Below, one piece after another: positions 1 through 64,000 of a DNA stretch of 64,000 bases; the stretch's first letter is position 1; each line of letters opens with the position of its first letter. A program made the position numbers and the translations under genes. The stretch is from Candidatus Nomurabacteria bacterium (GTDB lineage: Bacteria; Patescibacteriota; Minisyncoccia; Phycocordibacterales; UBA9973), in assembly GCA_026395915.1 (NCBI GenBank), contig JAPLXU010000012.1, positions 8,996 through 72,995 on the forward strand. Direction: 5' to 3'. The notes under the pieces were generated by a model, which had not been told where the DNA came from, did no database searches, and saw nothing but the letters and a program-made list of their open reading frames with translations.

Positions 1-415
1 GAGAAGTTGAATATATTCCTGCCAGAGCGGGGAATCGAGAATCTTCAGAATTAATGACGGCTAAAATAAAAGAACTGGGTTGGAAACAGGAAAGAAATAT
101 AAAAGATTACATATTGAACTTGAAAAATACAGCTTACAAATCGTAAAAATTTTTCTACGTTTCTCTTTACTTTTTTCAAAAAGCATGGTAATACTTCAAA
201 GGAAACAGATCTTTAAAAACATATTGATTCGTCTGAATGCTTCAATTTCAGCCTTATTTTGCTGGTCGGTATCCTTAAAGCCTTATACAATTATATGAGG
301 AGTTAGGGATACCGATCAGTCAGAAAGTTTGGCGTAAACTGCGCCTGCAAGTTTGTCAGGAATGGCAAGCTCAAGTAATTGCGGAGACTGAAAGGTTGAC
401 GAAAGAAAAAAGCCT

Positions 416-1621
416 ATGAAGAAACAGTATGAATTTCAAGCCTCGCTTGAATTACTAGTTGGTGGTTGGCACCTCCTGCATGGAACGATTCAGTTCGGTA
501 ACGAGGGAGCCGGCGGAGCTCAAACTGTGCAGGAATCGCTGGAACAAGTCCAGGGGTTGAATCAAGAACTCAAGCCCCTCGGGATCGGGTTCCGTGTTTC
601 TGCGCACTGGTGGCACGAGCTGGCTGTCAACTCCAAGCACCCGATTGTGGGTGGGTCGGCGCACTTGAACAAGCCCCGTTGTATCGAACTGCCAGAGTGG
701 ATCGAAGGCGCCAAGAGCGGCAAATACCCGAAACCTGGCCGCTTGATTCCGCCTGGCTTTGGCACTCCTGGAGCGGATCTCGGAGCGTTCATTCATCCCG
801 ATCCGACTCGCCGGAAGTTGTGTCACGACATGATGGTCTATACCATGGAGGAGTGCGAGAACACAATGACTGCCCTCAGCATTGATGACGTCAACGGCAT
901 TTATTGGACCGGACCGGATGGGATCCGGTGGCAACGCTTGTGCAACGGCGACGATCCGCTCCTCGGCTACAAATGCAACCAGAAACTGGAGGAATGGGGT
1001 TTGGTCGTTGGCGGGGTAGGTAGTGCGCTCAAAGAAGCGCGGGAACGTGGTTTTACCAAGCGCGCGAAATTGCTCATCGAGGGCAAACCCGCAGGCGACC
1101 CCTGTTGGATTGATGTCTTCACTGATGACGTGCTGTGTTGCGAGGGAATTCGCCAAATCAATGCCATTGCCGGCGGCGAGCTCGCTTTGTGGCAATCGGA
1201 ACTCCTCCATACTCACGGCTCCGGCATCCCGTTTGCCGAAGGAATGAGGATCGCCATCAGGAACAAAGTGTTCGGTGGGCACATTCACCTCAACGCCGGC
1301 CCGGTGAGCATTCAGAAGTATGGACCGATGCTGGCCAAGCGTGGTGGAACGAGGCTCAGCAAATTTCAACAGGCGACGGATCCGGATTTTCTTCCGGGCG
1401 AAGGACCCAAAGAATGGCTGAGACATCAAACTGACGCTCTCATGGTCGGGGCCAGATGGTCGGCCTTGACTGGCAAGGTGTTCAGGGTTGAGTTTGATGC
1501 TCGCTTCAGCAGGTACGCAGACATGATGGCGAGGCTCAAGAAGTCGGCCATGTTTACGCTGGATGGGTTCAAGGAAGCGTGCGGGAAGCTCGGTTGTGAG
1601 GCCAAAACGGTCACAGTCTAG
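416..1621 (+). CDS. hypothetical protein encoded in a GC-rich (~58% GC) segment that looks foreign to this genome; no family assignable by eye
   Basis: 401-aa intact ORF. Composition contrasts sharply with the AT-rich flanks. A long antisense ORF (455-1429) is the usual high-GC artefact. A rho-independent terminator follows. Confidence 0.45.
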   Translation: MKKQYEFQASLELLVGGWHLLHGTIQFGNEGAGGAQTVQESLEQVQGLNQELKPLGIGFRVSAHWWHELAVNSKHPIVGGSAHLNKPRCIELPEWIEGAKSGKYPKPGRLIPPGFGTPGADLGAFIHPDPTRRKLCHDMMVYTMEECENTMTALSIDDVNGIYWTGPDGIRWQRLCNGDDPLLGYKCNQKLEEWGLVVGGVGSALKEARERGFTKRAKLLIEGKPAGDPCWIDVFTDDVLCCEGIRQINAIAGGELALWQSELLHTHGSGIPFAEGMRIAIRNKVFGGHIHLNAGPVSIQKYGPMLAKRGGTRLSKFQQATDPDFLPGEGPKEWLRHQTDALMVGARWSALTGKVFRVEFDARFSRYADMMARLKKSAMFTLDGFKEACGKLGCEAKTVTV

Positions 1622-1694
1622 GCAGTTTTCAGGCCCTCCAGTCCACTCGGTTTCTGATTGGTTGAGCTTACAACAATATCGGTTTTTTCAAGGA

Positions 1695-1724
1695 GGGTCA
1701 GCCAAGATCGGCTGACCCTTTTTT
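1695..1724 (+). terminator. rho-independent terminator
   Basis: Perfect hairpin gggtcagcc-aagatc-ggctgaccc followed by TTTTTT, ~75 nt after the stop at 1621. Confidence 0.7.
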
Positions 1725-1811
1725 CGTACTTCTTCGTTAAGTCTTAATAATCATTTGATATGGTATAAGATATATAAGTCGGGTGGTTATTATTATTTTT
1801 AAAAATTATTT

Positions 1812-2429
1812 ATGAATTACAATACTTTAGCGAAAAAAGAGACAGTGGAGAAAGTTATAAAAGCGCTTGGCGCTATGGGAGTCGAAGCTATTTTTGTTGA
1901 AAATGGAAAAAGCGCTTTGGAAAAAATAAAAGAATTTATTCCAGAAAAGGTTTCGGTTATGAACGGAGCTTCTGTCACGCTTGAGCAGATCGGTTTCGTT
2001 GACTATTTGAAATCCGGAAAGCACGACTGGAACAATCTCCACGAGGCGATACTTCAAGAAAAAGATCCTGCAAAGCAAGCAATGCTCCGCAAGGAAGCTG
2101 TGCTGTCCGATTATTATTTGGGAAGCGTGCATGCGCTCGCCGAGACGGGAGAGTTTATCGTCGCTTCAAACACTGGCAGTCAATTACCGCACATAGTTTT
2201 CACTTCGCCGAATTTGATTTTTGTGGTTAGCACGAAAAAGATTGCTCCGACTTTGGCCGACGCGATGAATCGTTTGATGGACTACGTCATACCACTCGAA
2301 GATAAACACATGAGAGGGAAATATGGCGTAGGCACGGCGCCAAACAAAATTCTGACGTTCACCGGCGAGAATTCGATGATGAAAAGAAAAGTGAGAATGA
2401 TATTGGTAAATGAAGATCTTGGGTTTTAA
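1812..2429 (+). CDS. LUD-domain protein (lactate utilization LutC/YkgG-like, DUF162 family)
   Basis: 205 aa. The overall pattern, including the C-terminal 'IVFVVSTKKIAPTLADA' segment, resembles LUD-domain proteins. Confidence 0.5.
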   Translation: MNYNTLAKKETVEKVIKALGAMGVEAIFVENGKSALEKIKEFIPEKVSVMNGASVTLEQIGFVDYLKSGKHDWNNLHEAILQEKDPAKQAMLRKEAVLSDYYLGSVHALAETGEFIVASNTGSQLPHIVFTSPNLIFVVSTKKIAPTLADAMNRLMDYVIPLEDKHMRGKYGVGTAPNKILTFTGENSMMKRKVRMILVNEDLGF

Positions 2430-2497
2430 ATAAATTTTGGCAAAAAAACAGCGCTCCCGTGAGGGGAACGCCGGTTTTGTGATTCCTGATTCTAGGC

Positions 2498-3865
2498 TCA
2501 GGCTGCCTTTGCGAGGTCGCTCCCGAGAACGAGATCACTCGTCTCGGAGAACTTCGGGAGTTCCCATTTGAGGGCAACTTCGACGATATTGTCGAGGCCG
2601 ACGAGGTTCGATTCGTCCGTCGGATTCATCGCGTGCCAGGCCCACGTCTTGGGATGTTCAGGTGTATTGTTATCCGCCACGATCTTGGCGAGATCAACAT
2701 TGGACTGGGCGGCGATCTCGATTCCAGTCATGTAGCCGATCGAGCCAAGCAGAAGGCTTGTGACCACATCCCAATGTTGCTGTTGGCTGGAGAAGTGGCT
2801 GGGATTGCGGAACTGGCTCAGTTCGAACTCAATTGTGAATGTTGTCTCACAGGGGTTGAGTTTCAAATCGTTGCGGGCGCCGATTTGCGCGCCGAGCCAA
2901 TCGACTTGGTGCCCATTTGCCATCGCGAGAGAGTTATGCGCTTGAACACCGGGAGGCGGTTGGTCGCCATTCATGCGACTCCAGGGTTCTCCACCGATAC
3001 GTTGGCCGAGGTATCCACAACCGGCAATGCGGCCGAGCGTAGTATTCAAGCCTTTGCCATGGAACCGGCGAATAAACCACCCATACCCAGCCTTCCTCAG
3101 CACCTTGAACGACCACTCTGGGCGAAAGCCCTGTAGGACATCGTGAGATGCGTCGTGATTGAGGAAGCACCAGCCCTTCAGACCCGCGGCTTCGACCATG
3201 CGAGCGATAACGATCCAGTGTTGAGGGGTATTTGCAATGTTCTGAGTGAACGTATCTGCCGGTGTCCAACCGCACATTGGGCAATTCTCAATAAAGAGTT
3301 TTACCCCGTACTCTTTTGCGTAGCGGATGAGCGGAATGAGAACTTCGCCGACGAGTCGCATGTTCTCCTCAATCGGGAGTTTCAGATTGCGGCCGACGAA
3401 GATCGAAACACCTTCAGTTTTCGCCCCAGCTTTGTTCAACTTGGCGGCCGCGCGGATCGCACGACGGACATGCTCGATGTTCTGACGCCGGAACATTGGA
3501 TTCTCATGGAGCAGATTCTCGAACACACCAACGGTGCCGAGCGCAACTTTTCCTCCACAAGCATCGGCGAGTTCACGGGCATCTTCATCATCCAAGTCAA
3601 CGCCGGTGCAGTCTTTGCGCGTCAACATAGCGATGTGGTGTGCAACCGGATCCGCCATCGATTCCGGAGGCACATTGGCGTGAGAGGGCGCATGAGCACC
3701 ACCCATTTCCAAGGACTCAACGCCATTAGCCACGGCCCAGGCAATCCATTTCAAGGCGGCAGTGTTTGCCGCCTTGCGGGGATCGTGAATGAACATCTTT
3801 GAGTCTGTGCCCGGAGGCGTTTGTACGGCGGCCGTAAGGACGCCGATTTTCATTATGTTTCTCAT
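2498..3865 (-). CDS. sugar phosphate isomerase/epimerase (xylose-isomerase-like TIM barrel) encoded in a GC-rich segment
   Basis: Long minus-strand ORF. The likely start is ATG at 3865 (MRNIMKIGVL...), not the upstream in-frame Met. The TIM-barrel isomerase-like pattern includes 'KLFIENCP'. GC is ~58%, far above the genome. Confidence 0.5.
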   Translation of the reverse strand: MRNIMKIGVLTAAVQTPPGTDSKMFIHDPRKAANTAALKWIAWAVANGVESLEMGGAHAPSHANVPPESMADPVAHHIAMLTRKDCTGVDLDDEDARELADACGGKVALGTVGVFENLLHENPMFRRQNIEHVRRAIRAAAKLNKAGAKTEGVSIFVGRNLKLPIEENMRLVGEVLIPLIRYAKEYGVKLFIENCPMCGWTPADTFTQNIANTPQHWIVIARMVEAAGLKGWCFLNHDASHDVLQGFRPEWSFKVLRKAGYGWFIRRFHGKGLNTTLGRIAGCGYLGQRIGGEPWSRMNGDQPPPGVQAHNSLAMANGHQVDWLGAQIGARNDLKLNPCETTFTIEFELSQFRNPSHFSSQQQHWDVVTSLLLGSIGYMTGIEIAAQSNVDLAKIVADNNTPEHPKTWAWHAMNPTDESNLVGLDNIVEVALKWELPKFSETSDLVLGSDLAKAA

Positions 3866-4097
3866 AGTCTTGGTTTGTATTTTTCCGTTGTATACCGAAA
3901 GATGCACACACATGCACCCTGTACCGCCAAAACACACTACGTGCGTTCGGCAGTAACCTTGTAAATACTATAAATATCCACAAGGCTACTGCCGAAATAT
4001 ACAGAAAAAACAAGCAAAAGAGCTCTGTTTTCAAGGTTCTAATTCATCTAATCTTCATGAGTATTACCACGAAATTGCTTTTTTCGCAAGGGCTTTA

Positions 4098-27046: not shown

Positions 27047-27131
27047 CTCCTCCTGAAACAATTTTTGAAAATACGCCCTCGAGGTCAACAGGACAGGGAA
27101 CCCACTTTTCTTAAAATTGTTTCAGGAGGAG
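27047..27131 (+). ncRNA. conserved structured intergenic element, copy 1 (19-bp perfect closing stem around a conserved 47-nt core)
   Basis: ctcctcctgaaacaatttt ... aaaattgtttcaggaggag encloses GAAAATACGCCCTCGAGGTC-N16-CACTTTTCTT. The 3' arm contains the purH Shine-Dalgarno AGGAGG. Copies 2 and 3 are listed below. Confidence 0.5.
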
Positions 27132-27138
27132 AAATAAT

Positions 27139-28623
27139 ATGGCAAAAATAAATTCGGCTCTCGTTTCGGTTTTTAATAAAGATGGACTTGATGAAATCAT
27201 CAAGCTTCTTCATAAACATAAAATAAAAATAATTTCAACGGGTGGCACAGCGGAATTCATTCGCAAAATGAAAATTCCTGTCACCGAAGTTGAAACCATC
27301 ACAAATTATCCGTCTCTTTTTGGAGGTAGGGTAAAAACGCTCCAACCGCAAATTTTCGGCGGTATTTTAAATCGCCGGGACAAAGTCGAAGATCAGAAAG
27401 AAAAAAAACAATACAAAATAAGCGACATTGATTTGGTGATCGTTGATCTCTATCCGTTTGAAGAGACGCTTGCAAGTGGAGCAAATGAAGAAGAGATCAT
27501 CGAAAAGATAGACATAGGAGGAGTAGCACTCATTCGCGCGGCGGCAAAAAATTTCAAGGATGTTGTTGTGATTTCTTCAAAAAATCAATATGAAAATTTG
27601 CGTGATATTTTAAAAACTAGAAATGAAACCACTTTAGAAGAACGCAAGAAATTTGCTGGGCAAGCGTTTGAAATGACGAGCCATTACGACAGCGCCATCC
27701 GCGGATATTTTCAGAGCATTTCATTGCGGTACGGAGAGAACCCGCATCAAAAAGGAGAATTCATTGGCAACTTAGAAGAGAGTTTCACTCAGCTTCACGG
27801 CAAGGAACTTTCTTATAATAATTTTATAGACACCGAAGCAGCAATAGCAACAGTTTATGATTTTAAAAAACCTGCCTTCGCTATCATCAAACACATGAAT
27901 GCCTGTGGTTTAGCTGTGAGAGAGGAGGGACATTTGTTTGAAGCATATAAAGCGGCTTATAACGCAGATCCGGTTTCTGCTTTTGGAGGAATACTGGCGG
28001 CGAACAGGATTATAAGTGAAGACATCGCTGAGCTCATTAAGAAACAGAAACTTTTTGCGGAAGTAATCATTGCGCCGGATTTTTCTAAAAAAGCTCTAGA
28101 TATATTTATGGAGAAAAAAGATTGTCGAATTCTAAAATGGAATAATCCTAAAATTCCTGCAAAACAATCACGCACATGTTTCACCGGAATTCTCGTGCAA
28201 GATAGGGATACTCACGTTGAAAGCAAAGTGGATTTGAAAGTGACGACAAAACGAAAGCCGACAAAAAAAGAAATAAACGATTTACTTGTAGCATCCGTCG
28301 CAGCAAAACATCTGAAATCAAATTCTGTCGCTTTGGTAAAAAACGGCTCGCTTATTTCCATGGGTTGTGGACAGACATCGCGCATTGACGCCTTGAAACA
28401 AGCAATAGACAAAGCAGAAAAATTTGGTTTTTCTTTGAAAGGTGCGGTTCTTTCTTCCGAAGCGTTTTTTCCATTTCCTGATTGCGTAGAACTCGCTGCC
28501 AAGAAGGGCGTCAAAGCTGTCATCCATCCCGGAGGTTCGAAAAACGATCAAGCATCGATTAATGTGGCAAATAAATACAAAATGGCAATGGTGACGACCG
28601 GATTTCGTCATTTCAAGCACTAA
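27139..28623 (+). CDS. purH: bifunctional AICAR transformylase / IMP cyclohydrolase
   Basis: N-terminal MGS-like domain ('ALVSVFNKDGL', 'IISTGGTA'), then the AICARFT domain. 494 aa. Confidence 0.9.
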   Translation: MAKINSALVSVFNKDGLDEIIKLLHKHKIKIISTGGTAEFIRKMKIPVTEVETITNYPSLFGGRVKTLQPQIFGGILNRRDKVEDQKEKKQYKISDIDLVIVDLYPFEETLASGANEEEIIEKIDIGGVALIRAAAKNFKDVVVISSKNQYENLRDILKTRNETTLEERKKFAGQAFEMTSHYDSAIRGYFQSISLRYGENPHQKGEFIGNLEESFTQLHGKELSYNNFIDTEAAIATVYDFKKPAFAIIKHMNACGLAVREEGHLFEAYKAAYNADPVSAFGGILAANRIISEDIAELIKKQKLFAEVIIAPDFSKKALDIFMEKKDCRILKWNNPKIPAKQSRTCFTGILVQDRDTHVESKVDLKVTTKRKPTKKEINDLLVASVAAKHLKSNSVALVKNGSLISMGCGQTSRIDALKQAIDKAEKFGFSLKGAVLSSEAFFPFPDCVELAAKKGVKAVIHPGGSKNDQASINVANKYKMAMVTTGFRHFKH

Positions 28624-36680: not shown

Positions 36681-36686
36681 TTTTTT

Positions 36687-36761
36687 CAGCAAACAATTTT
36701 CGAAAATACGCCCTCGAGGTCATAAGGATAAGGAACTCACTTTTCTTAAAATTGTTTACTG
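36687..36761 (+). ncRNA. conserved structured intergenic element, copy 2
   Basis: cagcaaacaatttt ... aaaattgtttactg stem (14 bp, 1 mismatch) around the core CGAAAATACGCCCTCGAGGTCATAAGGATAAGGAACTCACTTTTCTT. Lies 18 nt upstream of the rplI ATG. Confidence 0.5.
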
Positions 36762-36778
36762 AAAAATATAAAATAGAT

Positions 36779-37222
36779 ATGAAAGTAATATTTTTAAGCG
36801 ATGTGCCAAGAGTTGGGAAAAAATATGACGTAAAAGAAGTTAATGATGGTTACGCCATGAATTTTTTGTTGCCGAGAAAATTAGCAACTATGGCTACGCC
36901 AAAGGCTCTTGCAGAACTTGAAACAAGGAAGAAAGAGATCTCAATCGAGAGGGAAGTGCAAGAAGAACTTTTAATGAAAAATCTGGAAGAAATCAAAGGC
37001 AAGACTATCACAATCAAAGGCAAAACAAACGACAAAGGGCATCTCTTTTCCGCGATTCACAAAAAAGAAATTACTGAAGCGATGAAAGAGCAGAATCGCG
37101 CAGAAATTAGCGAAGAATTTATTATTCTAGAAAAACCAATTAAAGAAGTAGGGGAACACGAAATCCAAGTCTCAATAAAAGGCAAAAAGTCCTCGTTTAA
37201 GCTTCTCGTAGAGAAAATATAA
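36779..37222 (+). CDS. rplI: ribosomal protein L9
   Basis: 'MKVIFLSDVPRVGKKYDVKEV' N-terminus (start at the internal Met of the listed ORF). ~148 aa. Confidence 0.85.
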   Translation: MKVIFLSDVPRVGKKYDVKEVNDGYAMNFLLPRKLATMATPKALAELETRKKEISIEREVQEELLMKNLEEIKGKTITIKGKTNDKGHLFSAIHKKEITEAMKEQNRAEISEEFIILEKPIKEVGEHEIQVSIKGKKSSFKLLVEKI

Positions 37223-42690: not shown

Positions 42691-42850
42691 TCGCTAAAAT
42701 ACAATTCAAATACAACCCCTTATAAAATACCTTCAAGAACAATTCAGATGCAACCCCCTATTTCCCCCTTATCAGGGGGACTAAAATACCGAATACTGTG
42801 CTTTCGTATTTTCCCTCCCCTGATAAGGGGAGGATTAAGGAGGGGTTGAA
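42691..42850. repeat. composite GC-rich palindromic repeat, left copy (plus a partial upstream duplication) flanking the DUF559 gene
   Basis: ctaaaat-caattc..CAACCCC-(ccccc ttatca ggggg hairpin)-spacer-(cctcccc tgataa ggggagg hairpin)-GGGGTTG. The 7-bp terminal inverted repeat is CAACCCC/GGGGTTG. Confidence 0.7.
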
Positions 42851-43227
42851 TTCATGCATTTAATTTTTCCAATCAAATCCTCAGCAACACTCTCCGTGTC
42901 TGCCAGAATTTCTTCATTCGTGTATCTTATTATTTTTAATCCAAATTTCTGTTTTAATAAGTTATCTCTTTCTTCATCTCTTGTCTTTTGAAAAGTATGT
43001 ATTTTTCCATCAATTTCTATTGCAAGACCAAGTTTTGAGCAGTAAAAATCTACAACAAAGTGATCTATCGGTTTTTGTCTGGTAAATTTTAAGTTCGCTA
43101 GTTTTTTATTTTTTAAAATTTTACCCCAAAAAACCTTTTCAGCTTCAGTCGTTTTTTTTCGTAACTCTCTAGCGCGAGAAACTAAATTTTTATCATATGG
43201 AATATATGGGATATTGTATTTTTGCAT
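42835..43227 (-). CDS. DUF559 endonuclease-domain protein (Vsr-like fold family)
   Basis: 130 aa with the 'ARELRKKTTEAEKVFW' N-terminal motif typical of DUF559. The C-terminus (..KCMNSTPP) reads into the left repeat. Confidence 0.6.
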   Translation of the reverse strand: MQKYNIPYIPYDKNLVSRARELRKKTTEAEKVFWGKILKNKKLANLKFTRQKPIDHFVVDFYCSKLGLAIEIDGKIHTFQKTRDEERDNLLKQKFGLKIIRYTNEEILADTESVAEDLIGKIKCMNSTPP

Positions 43228-43242
43228 GAAGTTAATTATAAC

Positions 43243-43406
43243 CTAAAATGCAATTCGGTAGATAACTCAAACGCAACCCCCTTTTATCCCCCTTATCAGG
43301 GGGGGCTAAATACCGTTTCGTGCCTTTCGCAAGAACCGTTCTTGCAAAAACTTGCGAAAACGATCGCATTTTATTCCTCCCTGATAAGGGAGGTTAGGAG
43401 GGTTGA
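43243..43406. repeat. composite GC-rich palindromic repeat, right copy (direct orientation relative to the left copy)
   Basis: Same architecture as 42691-42850, with an extra internal palindrome gcaagaac-c-gttcttgc. Confidence 0.7.
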
Positions 43407-46776: not shown

Positions 46777-46808
46777 AAGGCAAGACCTAACATGTTAGGT
46801 CTTGCCTT
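46777..46808 (-). promoter_or_regulatory. perfect 14-bp-stem hairpin in the mraY-ftsW spacer (attenuator/terminator or processing site)
   Basis: aaggcaagacctaac-atg-ttaggtcttgcctt. On the minus strand the closest T-run (ttttaat) follows it only after ~8 nt. Confidence 0.4.
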
Positions 46809-52350: not shown

Positions 52351-52902
52351 CTATTCTCCTATTTTATTTTCCTCTTCTAAACTTTCTGAGGCAACATTAA
52401 TAGAATTATTCACTTCACCATAATCCGGCAATTCATCTACAGATTTTATACCCATATACGATAACAATTCAAAGCTGGGTTTGTAAATATAACGCCTGCT
52501 ATCTTTTGGATCAAGTATTCTTTCTATCAATCCGCGAACAGATAATGCTCGCAAAGTGAAACTGGAATTGACTCCCCTTATATAATCGATCTCCGCTCGG
52601 TTCGCACCATTTTTATAAAGAATAATGGATAATGTTTCCAAACTTGCTTTTGAAAGTTCTTTGTTCAGTTCTTCTTTTTGCAATTCTTCAAACAAACTTG
52701 ATAATTCTGGCGCTGTGCCAAGCGCAATATCAGAATCTTTTTCAATCAATACTATTCCTCTCTCTTTTAAATTGTTTTTTAATCTAAGAACGCCTTCATT
52801 CATTTCCGCCTCCTCAACTTTTAAAATCTCTGCAAGTTTCTTTCGCGACATTGGTTCTCCTTTCCAAAACAGTATAGCTTCTATTTTTGATTCTAAATTC
52901 AT
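52351..52902 (-). CDS. scpB: segregation and condensation protein B
   Basis: 'IEAILFWKGEPMSRKKLAEIL' winged-helix pattern. 183 aa. Directly downstream of scpA. Confidence 0.85.
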   Translation of the reverse strand: MNLESKIEAILFWKGEPMSRKKLAEILKVEEAEMNEGVLRLKNNLKERGIVLIEKDSDIALGTAPELSSLFEELQKEELNKELSKASLETLSIILYKNGANRAEIDYIRGVNSSFTLRALSVRGLIERILDPKDSRRYIYKPSFELLSYMGIKSVDELPDYGEVNNSINVASESLEEENKIGE

Positions 52903-52916
52903 AATTATTGATCTAC

Positions 52917-52997
52917 GTTCTGTGAAGGATTTTAAGAAAAGTGGGTTCCCTGCCCTTAAGACCTCGAGGGCGTATTTTCAAAAATCCTTTACAGAAC
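52917..52997 (-). ncRNA. conserved structured intergenic element, copy 3 (minus strand, fills the scpA-scpB spacer)
   Basis: Minus strand: gttctgtaaaggatttt-GAAAATACGCCCTCGAGGTCTTAAGGGCAGGGAACCCACTTTTCTT-aaaatccttcacagaac. 15 nt upstream of the scpB ATG. Overlaps the scpA stop. Confidence 0.5.
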
Positions 52998-53729
52998 GTT
53001 TGTATTACTTTTTTCCTGCTTACTAATAATAATATCGGCGAAACCATTTTCTTGAATCGCGTCAAGTATCCCGTTTCTGACGAGCTCCAGCATCGCCAAG
53101 AACCCGACTATCACAAACAATTTCTCTTCTCGAGTTGTCGCTTTACCAGCAAAACTTTTGAAGCTTGTTTGAATGGAACTTTGTATTCTATCGGTCAGTT
53201 TACCAATCATTTCCTCAATGCTAATAACTTTTTTCACTTCCGCTTCCGGCAAGAATACTTTTTTGGGCATTCCTCCCAGAACATTCCGAGCAAAATTCAT
53301 CATGCTGTCTTTTGTAATTTGAGTATCCGGCAAAAAAACCAAAACATCATTTTTTCTTTCGAGAGGCGCGAAAATCATTTTCTCGCCAAACATATTTTTT
53401 ACATTTCCTCCGAGTTTCGTAAAAAGTTCATACAGTCGCAAGCGTTCTTCTAAACTCTTTATATCGCCCTCTTCCTCCGTCGTGAGACTCAAATTCGGCA
53501 AAAGCGATTTTGATTTAATGAGAATCAAAGTCGAAGCCACCAACACGAAGCTAGCAATCTCAGCCCTGCCCAGACCTCCGAGTTTGTTCATGTAGCCCAA
53601 GAAATCTTCAGTCACAGTCGCAAGCGACACATCGTTTATGAAAAGTTTTCGTTTTTCCACTAGTTCCAAAAGCAACCCAAAAGGGCCTTCGAAACCTGCT
53701 ATTTTTGCCGTATAACTTCCTGTTTCCAC
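52989..53729 (-). CDS. scpA: segregation and condensation protein A
   Basis: 'FEGPFGLLLELVEKRKL' ScpA N-terminal motif. 246 aa. Confidence 0.85.
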   Translation of the reverse strand: METGSYTAKIAGFEGPFGLLLELVEKRKLFINDVSLATVTEDFLGYMNKLGGLGRAEIASFVLVASTLILIKSKSLLPNLSLTTEEEGDIKSLEERLRLYELFTKLGGNVKNMFGEKMIFAPLERKNDVLVFLPDTQITKDSMMNFARNVLGGMPKKVFLPEAEVKKVISIEEMIGKLTDRIQSSIQTSFKSFAGKATTREEKLFVIVGFLAMLELVRNGILDAIQENGFADIIISKQEKSNTNVL

Positions 53730-53751: not shown

Positions 53752-56433
53752 GTGAAAAAGAAAAATGATAAAAAAAGCGTCCGCCTCTCCAAAAACGTCG
53801 TTCCTGTTGAATACGACATACAATTACAACCGGACTTGGACAATTTTACTTTTGAAGGCGTTGAAACTATCACCCTCTCTATTCTGAAACCGACTAAAAC
53901 ACTAACTCTCCATTCAAAAGAAATTGAAATAGAAACAGCTTCCATAAACAAAGATTCTCAAAAAATGTTCGCAAAAATTTCTTATGACGAGAAAAATGAA
54001 ACTGTGACTTTTGCTTTTCCTGAAACTATTCTTTCAGGAAAAACTAAACTGACCATAGTTTTCAGAGGAATTCTCAATGACAAAATGCGAGGGTTTTATA
54101 GGAGCAAATATACTATCAAAGAAAAAGACTACCATTTAGCGACCACACAATTTGAAGCTACCGATGCGCGAAGAGCTTTCCCTTGTTTTGATGAACCAGC
54201 GCAAAAAGCCATTTTTAATGTTTCTCTCATTGTCCAAAAAGGCAAGACGGCTATCTCAAATACTTTGCCAGTATCTGTCGCGGAACACGATGCTGAATAC
54301 GAAATAGTAAAATTTTCTCCAACGCCGAAAATGTCCACTTACTTGCTCGCATTTATTGTAGGAGACTTTGAATGTCTGGAATCAAAAACTACTCCCACCA
54401 CCTCGTCCTTCAGACACTCCCCCTCAGGCAGGGGGAGAAGTATACGAGTTCGTGTCTTTACCACTCCAGGAAAAAAACATCAAGCCAAATTCGCGCTTGA
54501 TTGCGCGATAAAAACTTTAGAATTTTACGAAAAATATTTCGACATCGCCTATCCTCTGCCCGTGCTCGACATGATAGCTATCCCAGACTTTACAGCCGGA
54601 GCAATGGAAAATTGGGGCGCAATCACGTATCGCGAAAGCGCTATCTTGGTCGATGATGATCATTCTTCGCTCTCAAACAAACAATGGGTGGCACTCATAA
54701 TTGCTCACGAAATATCGCATCAGTGGTTCGGTAATCTAGTGACAATGGAATGGTGGACTCATTTGTGGTTGAACGAGGGATTTGCTTCTTATCTTGAATA
54801 TTTGGCCGTCGATAAACTTTTTCCAAAATGGGATATTTGGACACAATTTATTACTAGCGAACTCTCCTCAGCTTTACGTTTAGATTCTCTCCTTAATACC
54901 CACCCGATAGAAATACCAGTGCATCATCCCGCAGAAATCGGCGAAATATTCGATGAAGTGTCTTATTCAAAAGGAGCGTCAATCATCAGAATGCTTGCGG
55001 ACTTTTTGGGAGAAAAAGATTTTCGAGACGGTTTAAGATTTTACTTAAAAAAGCATAGTTATAAAAATACGGAAACTATCCATCTCTGGCAAGCGTTTGA
55101 AAAAGTTTCAAAAAAGCCCAAAAAAAATGTGACAAAAATGATGCAAAATTGGACTTCAAAACCCGGCTATCCAATGATAAAAGCAGAGATTATAAATGAA
55201 AAATTAAATTTGTCGCAAGAGAGATTTTTTAGCAGTCCGATATCAAAGGCAAAAGCAAAAGAAAAAACCTTGTGGCAAATACCCGTTTCTATAAAAAATA
55301 GCAACACTGCGCGAAAATATCTTTTTAGCCGACTTTCGCAGGCTGTCGAGCCGAGAATGAGCGATTTTTCAGCAGAAAAATACGCGACGGCAAAAAAGAC
55401 ATTTTCGCGCAGTGACTATCAAAAAATAAATATTAGTGAAACAGGATTCTATCGAGTAAATTACTCAAAGGAACTTTTAGAAAAATTTAAAATACAAATT
55501 GAAAAAAAGTTATTACCAGCGCAAGACAGACTTGGAATCATCAGAGATCTTTTTGCCTTAGCTGAAGCTGGAATTGTTTCAACAAAAGATACGTTAGAGT
55601 TTTTAGCAAGCTATAAAAATGAAGACAATTACACAGTTTGGCTTGAACTTGCAACGGGTCTCGGACGAATTGAACAACTTTTTGCAAAAGAATCGGTTAA
55701 GAAAGAAGAGCTAAACAACCTTATCTTAAATTTATTTTCTCCTCTTGCAAACAAACTCGGTTGGGAAAAAAAGAAAGGAGAAACTCACACCGACGTGCTC
55801 TTGCGCTCACTCGTCATCACTCGAGCCGGACGTTCTGGTGATATAAAAATAATTGCTGAAGCGAAAAATAAATTCACGGCCATGCAAAAAGGTAAACACA
55901 TTGATCCAGACGTTCGTGGTGCTGTCTATGCGACTATCGCAAGAAACGGTGGAATGAAAGAATATCAAACTCTTCTCAAGCGATATAAAGAAGAAACCTT
56001 ACATGAAGAAAAAAACAGGATTGGAAACACTTTGGGAGATTTTCAAGAAACTAAAATTTTGAAACTTGTTTGCGAATTCGCTATGTCAAAATATGTCAGG
56101 GCCCAAAATACTATCGCCATCATTTCGGCTGTTGGAGCAAATCCGTTAGGCAGAGATATCTGGCTAAATTTTGTTCAAAAAAATTGGAAGACACTTGTCT
56201 CGCGTTATGGCGACGGTGGTCATACGCTAGCACGACTTGTGAAAGCCATAGGCGGAAGCGCAGAAGAAAAACACTTAAAATCATTCAAAAAATTCTTCAA
56301 AACTCATTTTGCGCCTGGAGCCGAGAGAGCGATAGAACAAGTATTGGAACGTCTTGAGAGCAATATCGCTTGGTTGAGAAGAGAAACGAAAAAGCGTCGC
56401 GGGAAACCCACGACGCTTGTGGCCAAAAATTGA
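53752..56433 (+). CDS. pepN: aminopeptidase N (M1 family)
   Basis: 'GAMENWG' exopeptidase motif. 'HEISHQWFGNLVTMEWW..NEGFA' zinc site. Contains an in-frame GC-rich hairpin insert at ~54400-54442. Confidence 0.9.
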   Translation: MKKKNDKKSVRLSKNVVPVEYDIQLQPDLDNFTFEGVETITLSILKPTKTLTLHSKEIEIETASINKDSQKMFAKISYDEKNETVTFAFPETILSGKTKLTIVFRGILNDKMRGFYRSKYTIKEKDYHLATTQFEATDARRAFPCFDEPAQKAIFNVSLIVQKGKTAISNTLPVSVAEHDAEYEIVKFSPTPKMSTYLLAFIVGDFECLESKTTPTTSSFRHSPSGRGRSIRVRVFTTPGKKHQAKFALDCAIKTLEFYEKYFDIAYPLPVLDMIAIPDFTAGAMENWGAITYRESAILVDDDHSSLSNKQWVALIIAHEISHQWFGNLVTMEWWTHLWLNEGFASYLEYLAVDKLFPKWDIWTQFITSELSSALRLDSLLNTHPIEIPVHHPAEIGEIFDEVSYSKGASIIRMLADFLGEKDFRDGLRFYLKKHSYKNTETIHLWQAFEKVSKKPKKNVTKMMQNWTSKPGYPMIKAEIINEKLNLSQERFFSSPISKAKAKEKTLWQIPVSIKNSNTARKYLFSRLSQAVEPRMSDFSAEKYATAKKTFSRSDYQKINISETGFYRVNYSKELLEKFKIQIEKKLLPAQDRLGIIRDLFALAEAGIVSTKDTLEFLASYKNEDNYTVWLELATGLGRIEQLFAKESVKKEELNNLILNLFSPLANKLGWEKKKGETHTDVLLRSLVITRAGRSGDIKIIAEAKNKFTAMQKGKHIDPDVRGAVYATIARNGGMKEYQTLLKRYKEETLHEEKNRIGNTLGDFQETKILKLVCEFAMSKYVRAQNTIAIISAVGANPLGRDIWLNFVQKNWKTLVSRYGDGGHTLARLVKAIGGSAEEKHLKSFKKFFKTHFAPGAERAIEQVLERLESNIAWLRRETKKRRGKPTTLVAKN

Positions 56434-62061: not shown

Positions 62062-63585
62062 ATGAAAATAAAGATGCAAAATGAGCAACAAAAGATAGGC
62101 TTTTTTATTAAAGAATTACGCGAACACCGCGGAATGACACAAGAAGAACTCGCAAAAGCTCTCAATACTTCTCAAAGCTCAATTCCAAGAATGGAAAAAG
62201 GTGAGCAAAATTTCACCACAGAATTACTCTCAAAAATAAGTAATGTTTTAGACCATCAAATAGTTTCAATAAATGATTCAATAGACTTTCAAGTGAACGG
62301 AGGTAAAAAATTGAGCGGGACAATTAAAACAAATTTTTCCAAAAACGGTTCGGTGGGTCTTCTTTGCGCGTCGCTTTTAAACAACGGAACAACGACCCTG
62401 CATGGTATTGCTCGAATTGAAGAGGTTTATAGAGTAATTGAAATTCTAGAAAGCATCGGCGTTATCGTAAGATGGCTCAATCAAAATACCTTGACTATCA
62501 CGCCTCCAAAAAAATTCAATTTAGAAAATATCAATACAGAATCAGCAATCAAAACTCGCTCTGTCGTGATGCTCATGGGACCTCTCGTCCATAAACTGTC
62601 TTCCTTCTCGATTCCCCACCCGCACGGATGCAATTTAGGCAAAAGAACAATTGCAGCTCATATTTACGCGCTTGAAAAACTTGGAATAAAAATTAAAACC
62701 ACTAGCGAAAAATATGAAATTACGGCTAAAAGAATGAAATCAGCAGAAATAGTAATGTACGAATCTGGAGATACTGCCTGCGAAAATGTTTTGACTGCCT
62801 CGGCACTTATCCAAGGCGAAACAAAAATAAATTTTGCCAGCGCAAATTACATGGTGCAAGAAGTTTGTTTCTTTCTCGAAGCTTTGGGTGTAAAGATCGA
62901 TGGTATAGGCACTGCCAGTCTAACTGTCTACGGGATAAAAGAAATCAACAAAGACATTGAATATTGGAACAGCGAGGACCCTATAGAATCAATGATGTTT
63001 ATTTCAGCTGGAATTATTACTGATTCAAAACTTACAATTACTCGAGCACCGATTGACTTCTTGGCGCTTGAATTGGAAAAATTAAAAAGAATGAATTTAA
63101 AATACAAAACTTCGAAAGTTTATTATTCATTTAACGGCAGAACAAAACTTGTCGATATAGAAATATTTCCAAGTAAATTAATTGCGCTGAATGACAAACT
63201 TCATTCAAATCCCTATCCGGGAATAAATATAGATAACCTGCCTTTTTTTGTGCCAGTTGCTATCAAAGCCAAAGGACAGACCATGATTCACGATTGGGTT
63301 TACGAAAATAGAGCTATATATCTTACAGAATTAAATCGTCTAGGCGCAGATATTACTCTCGCTGATCCGCATCGTCTATATATCAATGGTGGTACGCCTC
63401 TTCGAGGGGCCCAAGTAGTTTGCCCTCCGGCCTTGCGTCCATCAATGGTGATTCTCATCTCAATGCTTGGAGCAAGTGGCACTTCAATTTTGCGAAATGT
63501 CTATATGATAAATCGAGGTTATGAAGAAATCGCCGAAAGACTAAACTCCATCGGCGCAGATATTAAAATCATCAAAGGAAACTAA
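62062..63585 (+). CDS. murA: UDP-N-acetylglucosamine 1-carboxyvinyltransferase (MurA) with N-terminal XRE-type helix-turn-helix domain
   Basis: N-terminus 'LRELREHRGMTQEELAKALNTSQSSIPRMEKGE' is an XRE HTH. Then the EPT fold with the active-site loop 'HPHGCNLGKRT' (Cys present). 507 aa. Confidence 0.75.
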   Translation: MKIKMQNEQQKIGFFIKELREHRGMTQEELAKALNTSQSSIPRMEKGEQNFTTELLSKISNVLDHQIVSINDSIDFQVNGGKKLSGTIKTNFSKNGSVGLLCASLLNNGTTTLHGIARIEEVYRVIEILESIGVIVRWLNQNTLTITPPKKFNLENINTESAIKTRSVVMLMGPLVHKLSSFSIPHPHGCNLGKRTIAAHIYALEKLGIKIKTTSEKYEITAKRMKSAEIVMYESGDTACENVLTASALIQGETKINFASANYMVQEVCFFLEALGVKIDGIGTASLTVYGIKEINKDIEYWNSEDPIESMMFISAGIITDSKLTITRAPIDFLALELEKLKRMNLKYKTSKVYYSFNGRTKLVDIEIFPSKLIALNDKLHSNPYPGINIDNLPFFVPVAIKAKGQTMIHDWVYENRAIYLTELNRLGADITLADPHRLYINGGTPLRGAQVVCPPALRPSMVILISMLGASGTSILRNVYMINRGYEEIAERLNSIGADIKIIKGN

Positions 63586-63653
63586 TGCGCCTTTCGAGAA
63601 ATAACTTTTTGCGGGGTTTCGAGGCTGGCGAGCCGAAAACTTCAGGATTTTTT

Positions 63654-64000
63654 ATGCTTAAAAAAATCCGTACCAAAAAAAAGTTTATTTCTCGAAAGGC
63701 GCCGAGAGTTATTGTTATTCTTGGTCAAACTGCCACTGGCAAAAGTAATTTAGCAGTAAAAATCGCCCAAAAAATTAATGGCGAAATAATTTCAGCTGAT
63801 TCGAGACAAGTTTATAAGTGGCTTAACATTGGAACTGGAAAAATTACAAAAAAGGAAATGAGAGGAGTTCCTCATCATCTTCTCGACGTAGTAAAACCAA
63901 AAGAAAAATTCACTGTTGCTAAATACAAAGAATTAGCTGAAGAAAAAATTAAAGATATAATTTTTCGAGGAAAAACACCGATAATCTGTGGTGGCACAGG
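63654..64000 (+). CDS. miaA: tRNA dimethylallyltransferase (5' partial; continues past window end)
   Basis: 'VIVILGQTATGKS' P-loop. 'ISADSRQVYK..IGTGK' is also typical of MiaA. No stop within the window. Confidence 0.8.
   Translation, partial: MLKKIRTKKKFISRKAPRVIVILGQTATGKSNLAVKIAQKINGEIISADSRQVYKWLNIGTGKITKKEMRGVPHHLLDVVKPKEKFTVAKYKELAEEKIKDIIFRGKTPIICGGT

Follow-up and report, generated by a model that had tools for sequence, protein, structure and literature searches.

Hairpin-forming modules with a conserved centre and apparently flank-derived stems at gene junctions of a Candidatus Nomurabacteria bacterium

Does a closing helix that covaries around a conserved core, repeated three times just upstream of gene starts, have to mean that selection acts on an RNA structure? 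The question is raised by a 64,000-nt stretch of contig JAPLXU010000012.1 (positions 8,996 to 72,995; hereafter the window) from an uncultured groundwater bacterium of the Candidatus Nomurabacteria (Patescibacteria/Candidate Phyla Radiation, CPR), with a G+C content of ~38%. An earlier note on this DNA had pointed out three copies of a conserved core enclosed by a long stem and had taken the compensatory changes in that stem as the product of selection on RNA structure. We call the element F1; it is an 85-nt hairpin-forming module made up of a 19-bp arm, a 47-nt centre and a second 19-bp arm, found at three places in the window:

27047 to 27131, plus strand: F1 copy 1, in the guaA-purH spacer (5' arm 27047-27065, core 27066-27112, 3' arm 27113-27131).
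36682 to 36766, plus strand: F1 copy 2, in the spacer between an S41 peptidase (ctpA-like) gene and rplI (arms 36682-36700 and 36748-36766, core 36701-36747).
52915 to 52999, minus strand: F1 copy 3, at the scpA-scpB junction (5' arm 52999-52981, core 52980-52934, 3' arm 52933-52915).

The window has exactly three occurrences of the 20-mer GAAAATACGCCCTCGAGGTC (27067 and 36702 on the plus strand, 52979-52960 on the minus strand) against a shuffled expectation of 0, even with 3 mismatches, and a covariance model run over the window with filters off returned exactly these three copies (106.5, 100.9 and 104.8 bits by cmsearch for copies 1, 2 and 3) and none besides, confirming the cores reported at 27066-27112, 36701-36747 and 52934-52980. 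The stems, previously given as 19, 14 and 17 bp, are all 19 bp long: copy 1 is a perfect 19/19 inverted repeat around a 47-nt spacer, and copies 2 (95% complementary) and 3 have one mismatch each (C.A/A.C on the gene-sense strand). With a further 5 bp of inner helix, the predicted stem has an energy of -33 to -38 kcal/mol. The 3' arm ends 7, 12 and 12 nt before the start codon in copies 1, 2 and 3, rather than the 8-18 nt first stated, and the upstream stop codon lies 20 nt before copy 1, 1 nt before copy 2 and within the 5' arm of copy 3, which takes in the final codons of scpA and its stop TAA (52991-52989). The copies simply occupy short intercistronic spacers. Copy 3 is unchanged in six independent Logan contigs from separate sequencing runs and is therefore not an assembly artefact. 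A purH-carrying Logan contig (L004, positions 1-50) starts within the F1 core, the repeat being a breakpoint for short-read assemblies. What the family carries is a unit of ~57 nt (ATTTT-N-GAAAATACGCCCTCGAGGTC-NNN-AGGRY-ARGGRAC-YCRC-TTTTC-TT-AAAAT); the outer ~14 bp of each stem lie outside it and repeat, in inverted form, the sequence just upstream, which is often the end of the preceding gene with its final codons and stop. The original description of a conserved centre within a long stem of copy-specific sequence holds.

Additional copies were found by following the neighbouring proteins into related Nomurabacteria contigs (loci labelled L0xx), giving eight distinct F1 sequences at five independent sites, three in the window and five in relatives:

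L003: F1 in the spacer between rpmE and the next gene, perfect 19-bp stem, found by the exact metagenome scan described below.
L022: F1 at the orthologous scpA-scpB junction, ScpA 82% identical.
L019: F1 at the orthologous scpA-scpB junction, ScpA 86% identical, centre diverged.
L034-L037: F1 at the orthologous scpA-scpB junction, ScpA 78% identical, centre flipped.
L022, second copy: F1 between ribF and an EamA transporter gene.

An exact scan for the 20-mer in 185,579 species genomes gave only two chance matches, in high-GC coding DNA, and one true further copy (L003) came from the same scan of metagenomes; such scans are too strict, because the variants in L022, L019 and L034 differ inside the 20-mer and were missed. 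Viral contigs scanned with the F1 core and with that of a sister family, F2, yielded chance matches only, and no F1 copy was present in ~100 kb of other Nomurabacteria loci. The sites show insertion polymorphism. L005-L009 (PurH 83-84% identical) have no F1 at purH, the guaA-purH spacer being 29 nt in four relatives, and the scpA-scpB junction is empty in L032 (where the genes overlap at ATGA), L038 and L039. At empty F1 sites the gene pairs overlap or abut, and no palindrome is found there (guaA-purH, scpA-scpB and ribF-eamA in relatives), which rules out pre-existing palindromes as insertion targets.

Across the eight sequences, 15 of the 24 stem pairs have changed on both sides and none on one side only; 97.9% of the alignment cells pair, almost purely by Watson-Crick pairs (one G.U among ~190 cells), and the covariation score was reached by none of 500 shuffles. 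By naive statistics, then, the proposed covariation is strong. The source of the arms is apparent at the sites that can be compared between filled and empty states. At the empty junction of L038 the sequence is 'gaa agc gtt ttg taa a ATG'; this ScpA tail (..S/N-V/I-L-stop) makes up the outer 12-13 nt of the 5' arm in L022, L034 and the window, where its exact reverse complement follows the centre, and the empty junction of L039 still has the ScpA tail EQNKENI in common with filled sites. At ribF-eamA, the filled site of L022 reads 'caa gct tgc gag taa' and the empty site of L039 'aaa tta tgc taa'. Window copy 3 and its L022 counterpart differ at four arm positions, all compensated, with the 3' arm following the codon changes of scpA. 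In L034-L037 the arms are unchanged but the entire centre between them stands as its reverse complement (84.6 bits, minus strand), still with the consensus sequence. Opposite orientations of the centre were thus seen between lineages, and a single orientation among the contigs compared within a population (six identical contigs for the window species, four for L034). These alignments indicate that at two F1 sites (scpA, ribF) and one F2 site (purQ) one arm consists of pre-existing coding DNA and the other of its reverse complement; at the F1 sites the native arm is the outer 5' arm and the inverted copy the 3' arm. Since the arms are flank-derived where empty sites can be consulted, the arm differences are fully compensated and the centre can flip, the covariation of the stem is DNA-level in origin. 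The step from F1 covariation to selection on RNA structure, as taken in the earlier note, fails; G.U pairs, too, are nearly absent.

Template switching is reported to produce perfect stems from neighbouring sequence, multi-base compensatory changes, homogenisation of arms and inversion of the spacer (PMC8794818, PMC8604942). F1 resembles template-switch inverted repeats in its flank-derived arm (the reverse complement of the scpA and ribF tails, and of the PurQ tail for F2), in multi-base Watson-Crick compensation and arm homogenisation (window versus L022), and in spacer inversion (L034-L037). It differs from them in being built round a specific conserved centre of ~57 nt at several loci and in several species, with a stem of similar length (19-24 bp) each time. 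Our preferred explanation, to which we give a probability of about 0.55, is that F1 is a small family of foldback modules inserted at scattered sites in a subclade of Candidatus Nomurabacteria, and that template switching builds the stem from the adjoining DNA and maintains it; both this mechanism and the mode of spread are inferred. Template switching during replication would extend the arms from the local flank, would re-homogenise them after mutation by copying changes of the coding arm into the free arm, and would occasionally invert the centre, while new copies would arise when the hairpin and part of its stem are duplicated into other tight gene junctions. F1 and F2 would then be DNA-level insertion modules of the broad REP, Rickettsia palindromic element (RPE) and Correia kind (PMC10969869), with only the centre specific to the family.

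Several observations weigh against such an insertion module. The central 33 nt are 82-94% identical across the orthologous scpA-scpB copies; four-fold degenerate sites of scpA and scpB are 42-48% identical, near saturation, so the centre is constrained. All eight distinct copies agree at roughly two thirds of the central positions, and F1 paralogues within a genome are no closer to each other than orthologues, so that simple within-genome homogenisation does not account for the conservation. To judge from these comparisons a selfish insertion in decay would not have kept its centre so well, which points to each copy being functional. The core is in sense orientation with the flanking genes at all five independent sites (two-sided p ~0.06), a hint of strand-specific, RNA-level use. 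The ~19-bp stem length is constant, which template switching alone does not predict. The translated core (its two open reading frames as query) matched none of 5.8 billion protein clusters, and neither a transposase nor a recombinase nor an invertase gene was found among the window proteins that were scanned, which were part of the total. We suppose that the conserved centre is read by some protein, encoded either by the host or by the element.

The constraint and the orientation lead to the main rival, which we consider possible but less probable: F1 may be an intercistronic RNA hairpin kept by selection on the host (serving as an RNase III-type processing site, as an mRNA stabiliser or for protein binding) and uncoupling or resetting expression of the downstream cistron, template switching being only the mutational source. 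All eight copies are intergenic and lie between co-directional genes at the five sites, the hairpin base stands 7-18 nt from the start codon in every copy, and at an orthologous site with near-saturated synonymous divergence the core is under constraint. Moreover, the stem of at least 19 bp is continued by a 5-bp inner helix (GAAAA/TTTTC) with two compensated pairs in L019/L034. As gene pairs at empty sites overlap or abut, an inserted F1 spacer must, on this account, suit expression of the downstream gene. Correia elements provide a precedent, their hairpins in mRNA being substrates of RNase III with altered mRNA levels (PMC10969869), and the predicted F1 stem is long enough for such cleavage. 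In an operon mRNA F1 would fold into a stem of ~24 bp with a conserved apical domain and, by analogy with Correia, could serve as an RNase III-type or stability element. The flipped copy of L034-L037, however, keeps the consensus core, the stem has hardly any G.U pairs, F2 is found in either orientation and also within a coding sequence, and RNase III does not need a conserved loop. Non-Watson-Crick pairs also disagree on the strand: C.A mismatches (in the outer stem, the GAAAA/TTTTC helix and a CCCU/AGGG core helix) favour the antisense strand, and wobbles in a tentative GUC/GAC core hairpin favour the sense strand. Choosing the strand by mismatch type was abandoned, the counts being too few and contradictory, and the GUC/GAC inner helix is not claimed, wobbles in two copies supporting it and the L022 ribF-eamA copy breaking it.

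The genes downstream bear on a more specific RNA hypothesis, that of a riboswitch-like cis-regulatory RNA whose core is a ligand- or signal-sensing aptamer and whose closing stem gates the start region of the next gene. The window genes next to F1 are:

27139 to 28623, plus strand: purH, downstream of copy 1 (Pfam MGS and AICARFT_IMPCHas), its product 100% identical to MCX6752176.1 of a Candidatus Nomurabacteria MAG.
36779 to 37222, plus strand: candidate rplI (ribosomal protein L9), downstream of copy 2, with ATG at 36779, named from the earlier note and the N-terminus MKVIFLSDV; the gene upstream of copy 2 is Peptidase_S41.
52989 to 53729, minus strand: scpA, its 3' end and stop forming the outer 5' arm of copy 3 (PF02616 homologues).
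52351 to 52902, minus strand: scpB, 12 nt downstream of copy 3 (PF04079 in identical Logan loci).

A conserved core with a variable closing helix placed just upstream of start codons would fit a riboswitch, as would the run GGAGGAG within the 3' arm of copy 1, earlier read as the purH Shine-Dalgarno (SD) motif AGGAGG inside the stem. The run is indeed there, but it is not a credible SD sequence: among ~49 gene starts in the window purH alone has an SD-like run, the genome being essentially devoid of SD sequences, and copies 2-4 lack any SD-like sequence, whether within the 3' arm or beyond it. Downstream genes (purH, rplI, scpB, the EamA transporter gene and the gene after rpmE) have unrelated functions, and relatives lack F1 at purH. 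Rfam 15 recognised a single tRNA in the whole window, and no family matched the element or its core at the gathering threshold; at E<=10 the element region gave only generic miRNA-hairpin matches far under threshold and the core alone gave none. Finally, 19-24 perfect pairs are far longer and more stable than a switchable P1 helix, the arms copy upstream coding DNA and the core is flipped in one lineage. We thus regard a riboswitch, one of the candidates put forward earlier, as quite improbable.

In place of SD motifs, AT-rich or TAnnnT sequence precedes the gene starts of the window, in many cases with TAnnnT 6-7 nt upstream, a leaderless-type arrangement; a TGnTAnnnT-like box ends 6-7 nt before the ATG in many of the ~49 genes. 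These boxes and the near-absence of SD motifs suggest that leaderless mRNAs may be widespread in this host.

A small self-cleaving ribozyme within the long closing stem is the least probable of the alternatives. The core is compact, conserved and closed by a stem, and has several genomic copies, like some hammerhead or twister contexts. However, F1 matched no self-cleaving ribozyme model of Rfam 15 (hammerhead, twister, pistol, hatchet), even at E<=10, in agreement with the earlier failure to recognise hammerhead, twister or pistol by eye, and the evidence for helices within the core is slight and inconsistent. The hammerhead-like string of the sister family F2 (CUGANGA...GAAA) has no stem II, varies at A6 and reads CUGNCGA in the window copies, so this resemblance was discarded.

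DNA-level functions of the centre were considered as well. The core includes an 8-bp perfect palindrome, CCTCGAGG, invariant in seven of the eight distinct copies, and this dyad together with -35/-10-like hexamers could be a site for a dimeric protein or a promoter that is flipped. Opposite orientations at the same site in different lineages would agree with such a switch, as would promoter-like matches in copies 1 and 2 (AGGACA-16-TAAAAT and TTAAAA-16/17-(A/T)A(T/A)AAT). Copy 3 has no such match, though, and the -35-like hexamer is not conserved; the 47-51-bp spacer is very short for recombinase-mediated inversion, the scanned proteins include no invertase, conservation reaches asymmetrically far past the dyad, all five sites have one orientation, and hairpins of the CCCTCGAGGG type occur in relatives as ordinary terminator stems too. 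A binding site or invertible switch of this sort appears improbable. Portable-promoter and terminator readings were ruled out, the matches differing between copies. An intrinsic terminator has a G+C-rich stem directly followed by a U-tract; no sense-strand terminator-like site was found at the three window copies (the core of copy 3 has one weak antisense match). Avoidance of CTCGAG as a restriction site was not seen (16 observed versus 9.7 expected), and under the idea that arms serve as guides no further match to any F1 arm was found in the window and related loci.

F1 was compared with known classes of dispersed repeats. As the earlier note held, it is not a classical miniature inverted-repeat transposable element (MITE): no two independent copies share the outer ~14 bp, ATTTT/AAAAT at the inner end is all that the arms have in common, and no copy is flanked by a direct target-site duplication; an inverted copy of the upstream flank is found instead. 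Correia elements (NEMIS, in Neisseria) and ERIC sequences are likewise ~100-nt intergenic foldback repeats, co-transcribed with their neighbours into long RNA hairpins (PMC10969869), but Correia has conserved terminal inverted repeats and a TA target duplication whereas the outer arms of F1 are variable and flank-derived. REP and REPIN sequences are, like F1, intergenic palindromic repeats near stop codons, vertically persistent and of low cost to the host; REPINs conserve their arms (the REP sequences) and leave the loop free, the opposite of the conserved centre and variable arms of F1. Rickettsia palindromic elements are short palindromic repeats dispersed in the reduced genome of a host-dependent bacterium, as in our case, and are frequently inserted in frame (PMC10969869), a feature not seen in F1 and seen once in F2, in the metabolic gene pepN. 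RPE copies share their whole sequence, F1 copies only the centre, and the phylum is unrelated; this comparison is by description. Integron attC sites also lie between co-oriented genes and are recognised as a folded single strand whose stem sequence varies while its structure is kept. In attC, however, the base of the stem (R''/R' boxes) is conserved and the centre varies, the reverse of F1, and we saw neither an integron integrase among the scanned proteins nor a cassette array. F1 is real and is not a known RNA family; what is new relative to REP, RPE and Correia is that only the centre is family-specific.

The sister family F2 has the same architecture, with a conserved centre of ~68 nt (...GGGGTTTCGAGGCTGNCGAGCCGAAAACTTCAGGATTTTTT...) between variable, near-perfect arms of 23-27 bp whose inner ends are CTTTT/AAAAG; it, too, has no Rfam match. 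Four copies were recorded:

63587 to 63702, plus strand: F2 with 24-bp arms, overlapping the start codon (63654) of a probable miaA.
55305 to 55414, plus strand: F2 within the M1 aminopeptidase gene pepN.
L005, 310-423: F2, in opposite orientation to the genes.
L005, 11483-11599: F2, in opposite orientation to the genes.

At purQ-purF in L005 one F2 arm encodes the PurQ end ...KYFMT*, homologous to ...NYFLKK* at the empty site of the window. The pepN copy is an exact in-frame insertion of 108 nt (55306-55413) relative to the orthologues in L022, L032 and L039 in protein and codon alignments, and its arms resemble those of the miaA-site copy. A target-derived origin of the arms was ruled out for this copy, as the insert includes both of them; together with the resemblance to the miaA site, this implies that whole hairpins can also be copied as units. 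A second in-frame insertion in pepN (~54390-54445; 14 aa, TPTTSSFRHSPSGRGRSI) relative to orthologues includes a GC-rich palindrome, CTCCCCCTCAGGCAGGGGGAG. The M1 aminopeptidase itself (53752-56433) aligns over its full length with eukaryotic puromycin-sensitive aminopeptidase (E ~1e-225).

Other hairpins were noted. In L030 (10737-10850) a third kind stands at scpA-scpB, and its 3' side includes two neighbouring segments of the scpA tail, both inverted and with their order exchanged. Long imperfect hairpins of CCCCTTATCAGGGGG-type repeats (42765-42830 and 43290-43390) bracket a DUF559 (Vsr-like endonuclease) gene on the minus strand (42835-43227), and the gene with its hairpins is possibly a small mobile or homing unit. 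At 46777-46808 an intergenic spacer contains a perfect 32-bp palindrome without a spacer of its own (AAGGCAAGACCTAACA followed by TGTTAGGTCTTGCCTT). F1, F2 and the L030 hairpin could conceivably form an undescribed class of self-propagating CPR hairpin modules that join tight gene junctions by fold-back or template-switch copying of the upstream flank in inverted form (an 'inverted target-site duplication'), with the centre as a functional RNA or protein-recognition domain, though we consider this unlikely. One possibility for the centre of such a class is a processing signal that would give downstream cistrons a short unstructured 5' end for SD-free translation.

Three further features of the window are recorded here. 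At ~39000-40000 gene orientation turns from plus to minus and the cumulative GC skew peaks, resembling a replication terminus. Positions 1-4000 have a G+C content of 0.50 against 0.35-0.40 elsewhere in the window and may be a foreign segment; they hold an open reading frame without Pfam match and a xylose-isomerase-like TIM-barrel protein. The gene at 62062-63585 encodes an N-terminal Xre-type helix-turn-helix domain fused to a protein of EPSP-synthase fold (MurA/AroA-like).

If the preferred explanation is right, F1 would be a natural case in which textbook covariation of a closing helix comes from DNA template switching and not from selection on RNA, a caution for efforts to find RNA motifs automatically, above all in genomes that are compact and AT-rich. 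As a mobile module, with stems that copy the flank, it would have an unusual insertion signature. A ~57-nt sequence without Rfam match that stays nearly constant in the CPR, across species whose synonymous sites are near-saturated, implies that some protein or process reads it, and should its function lie at the RNA level, F1 would bear on how operons are expressed in bacteria without Shine-Dalgarno sequences.
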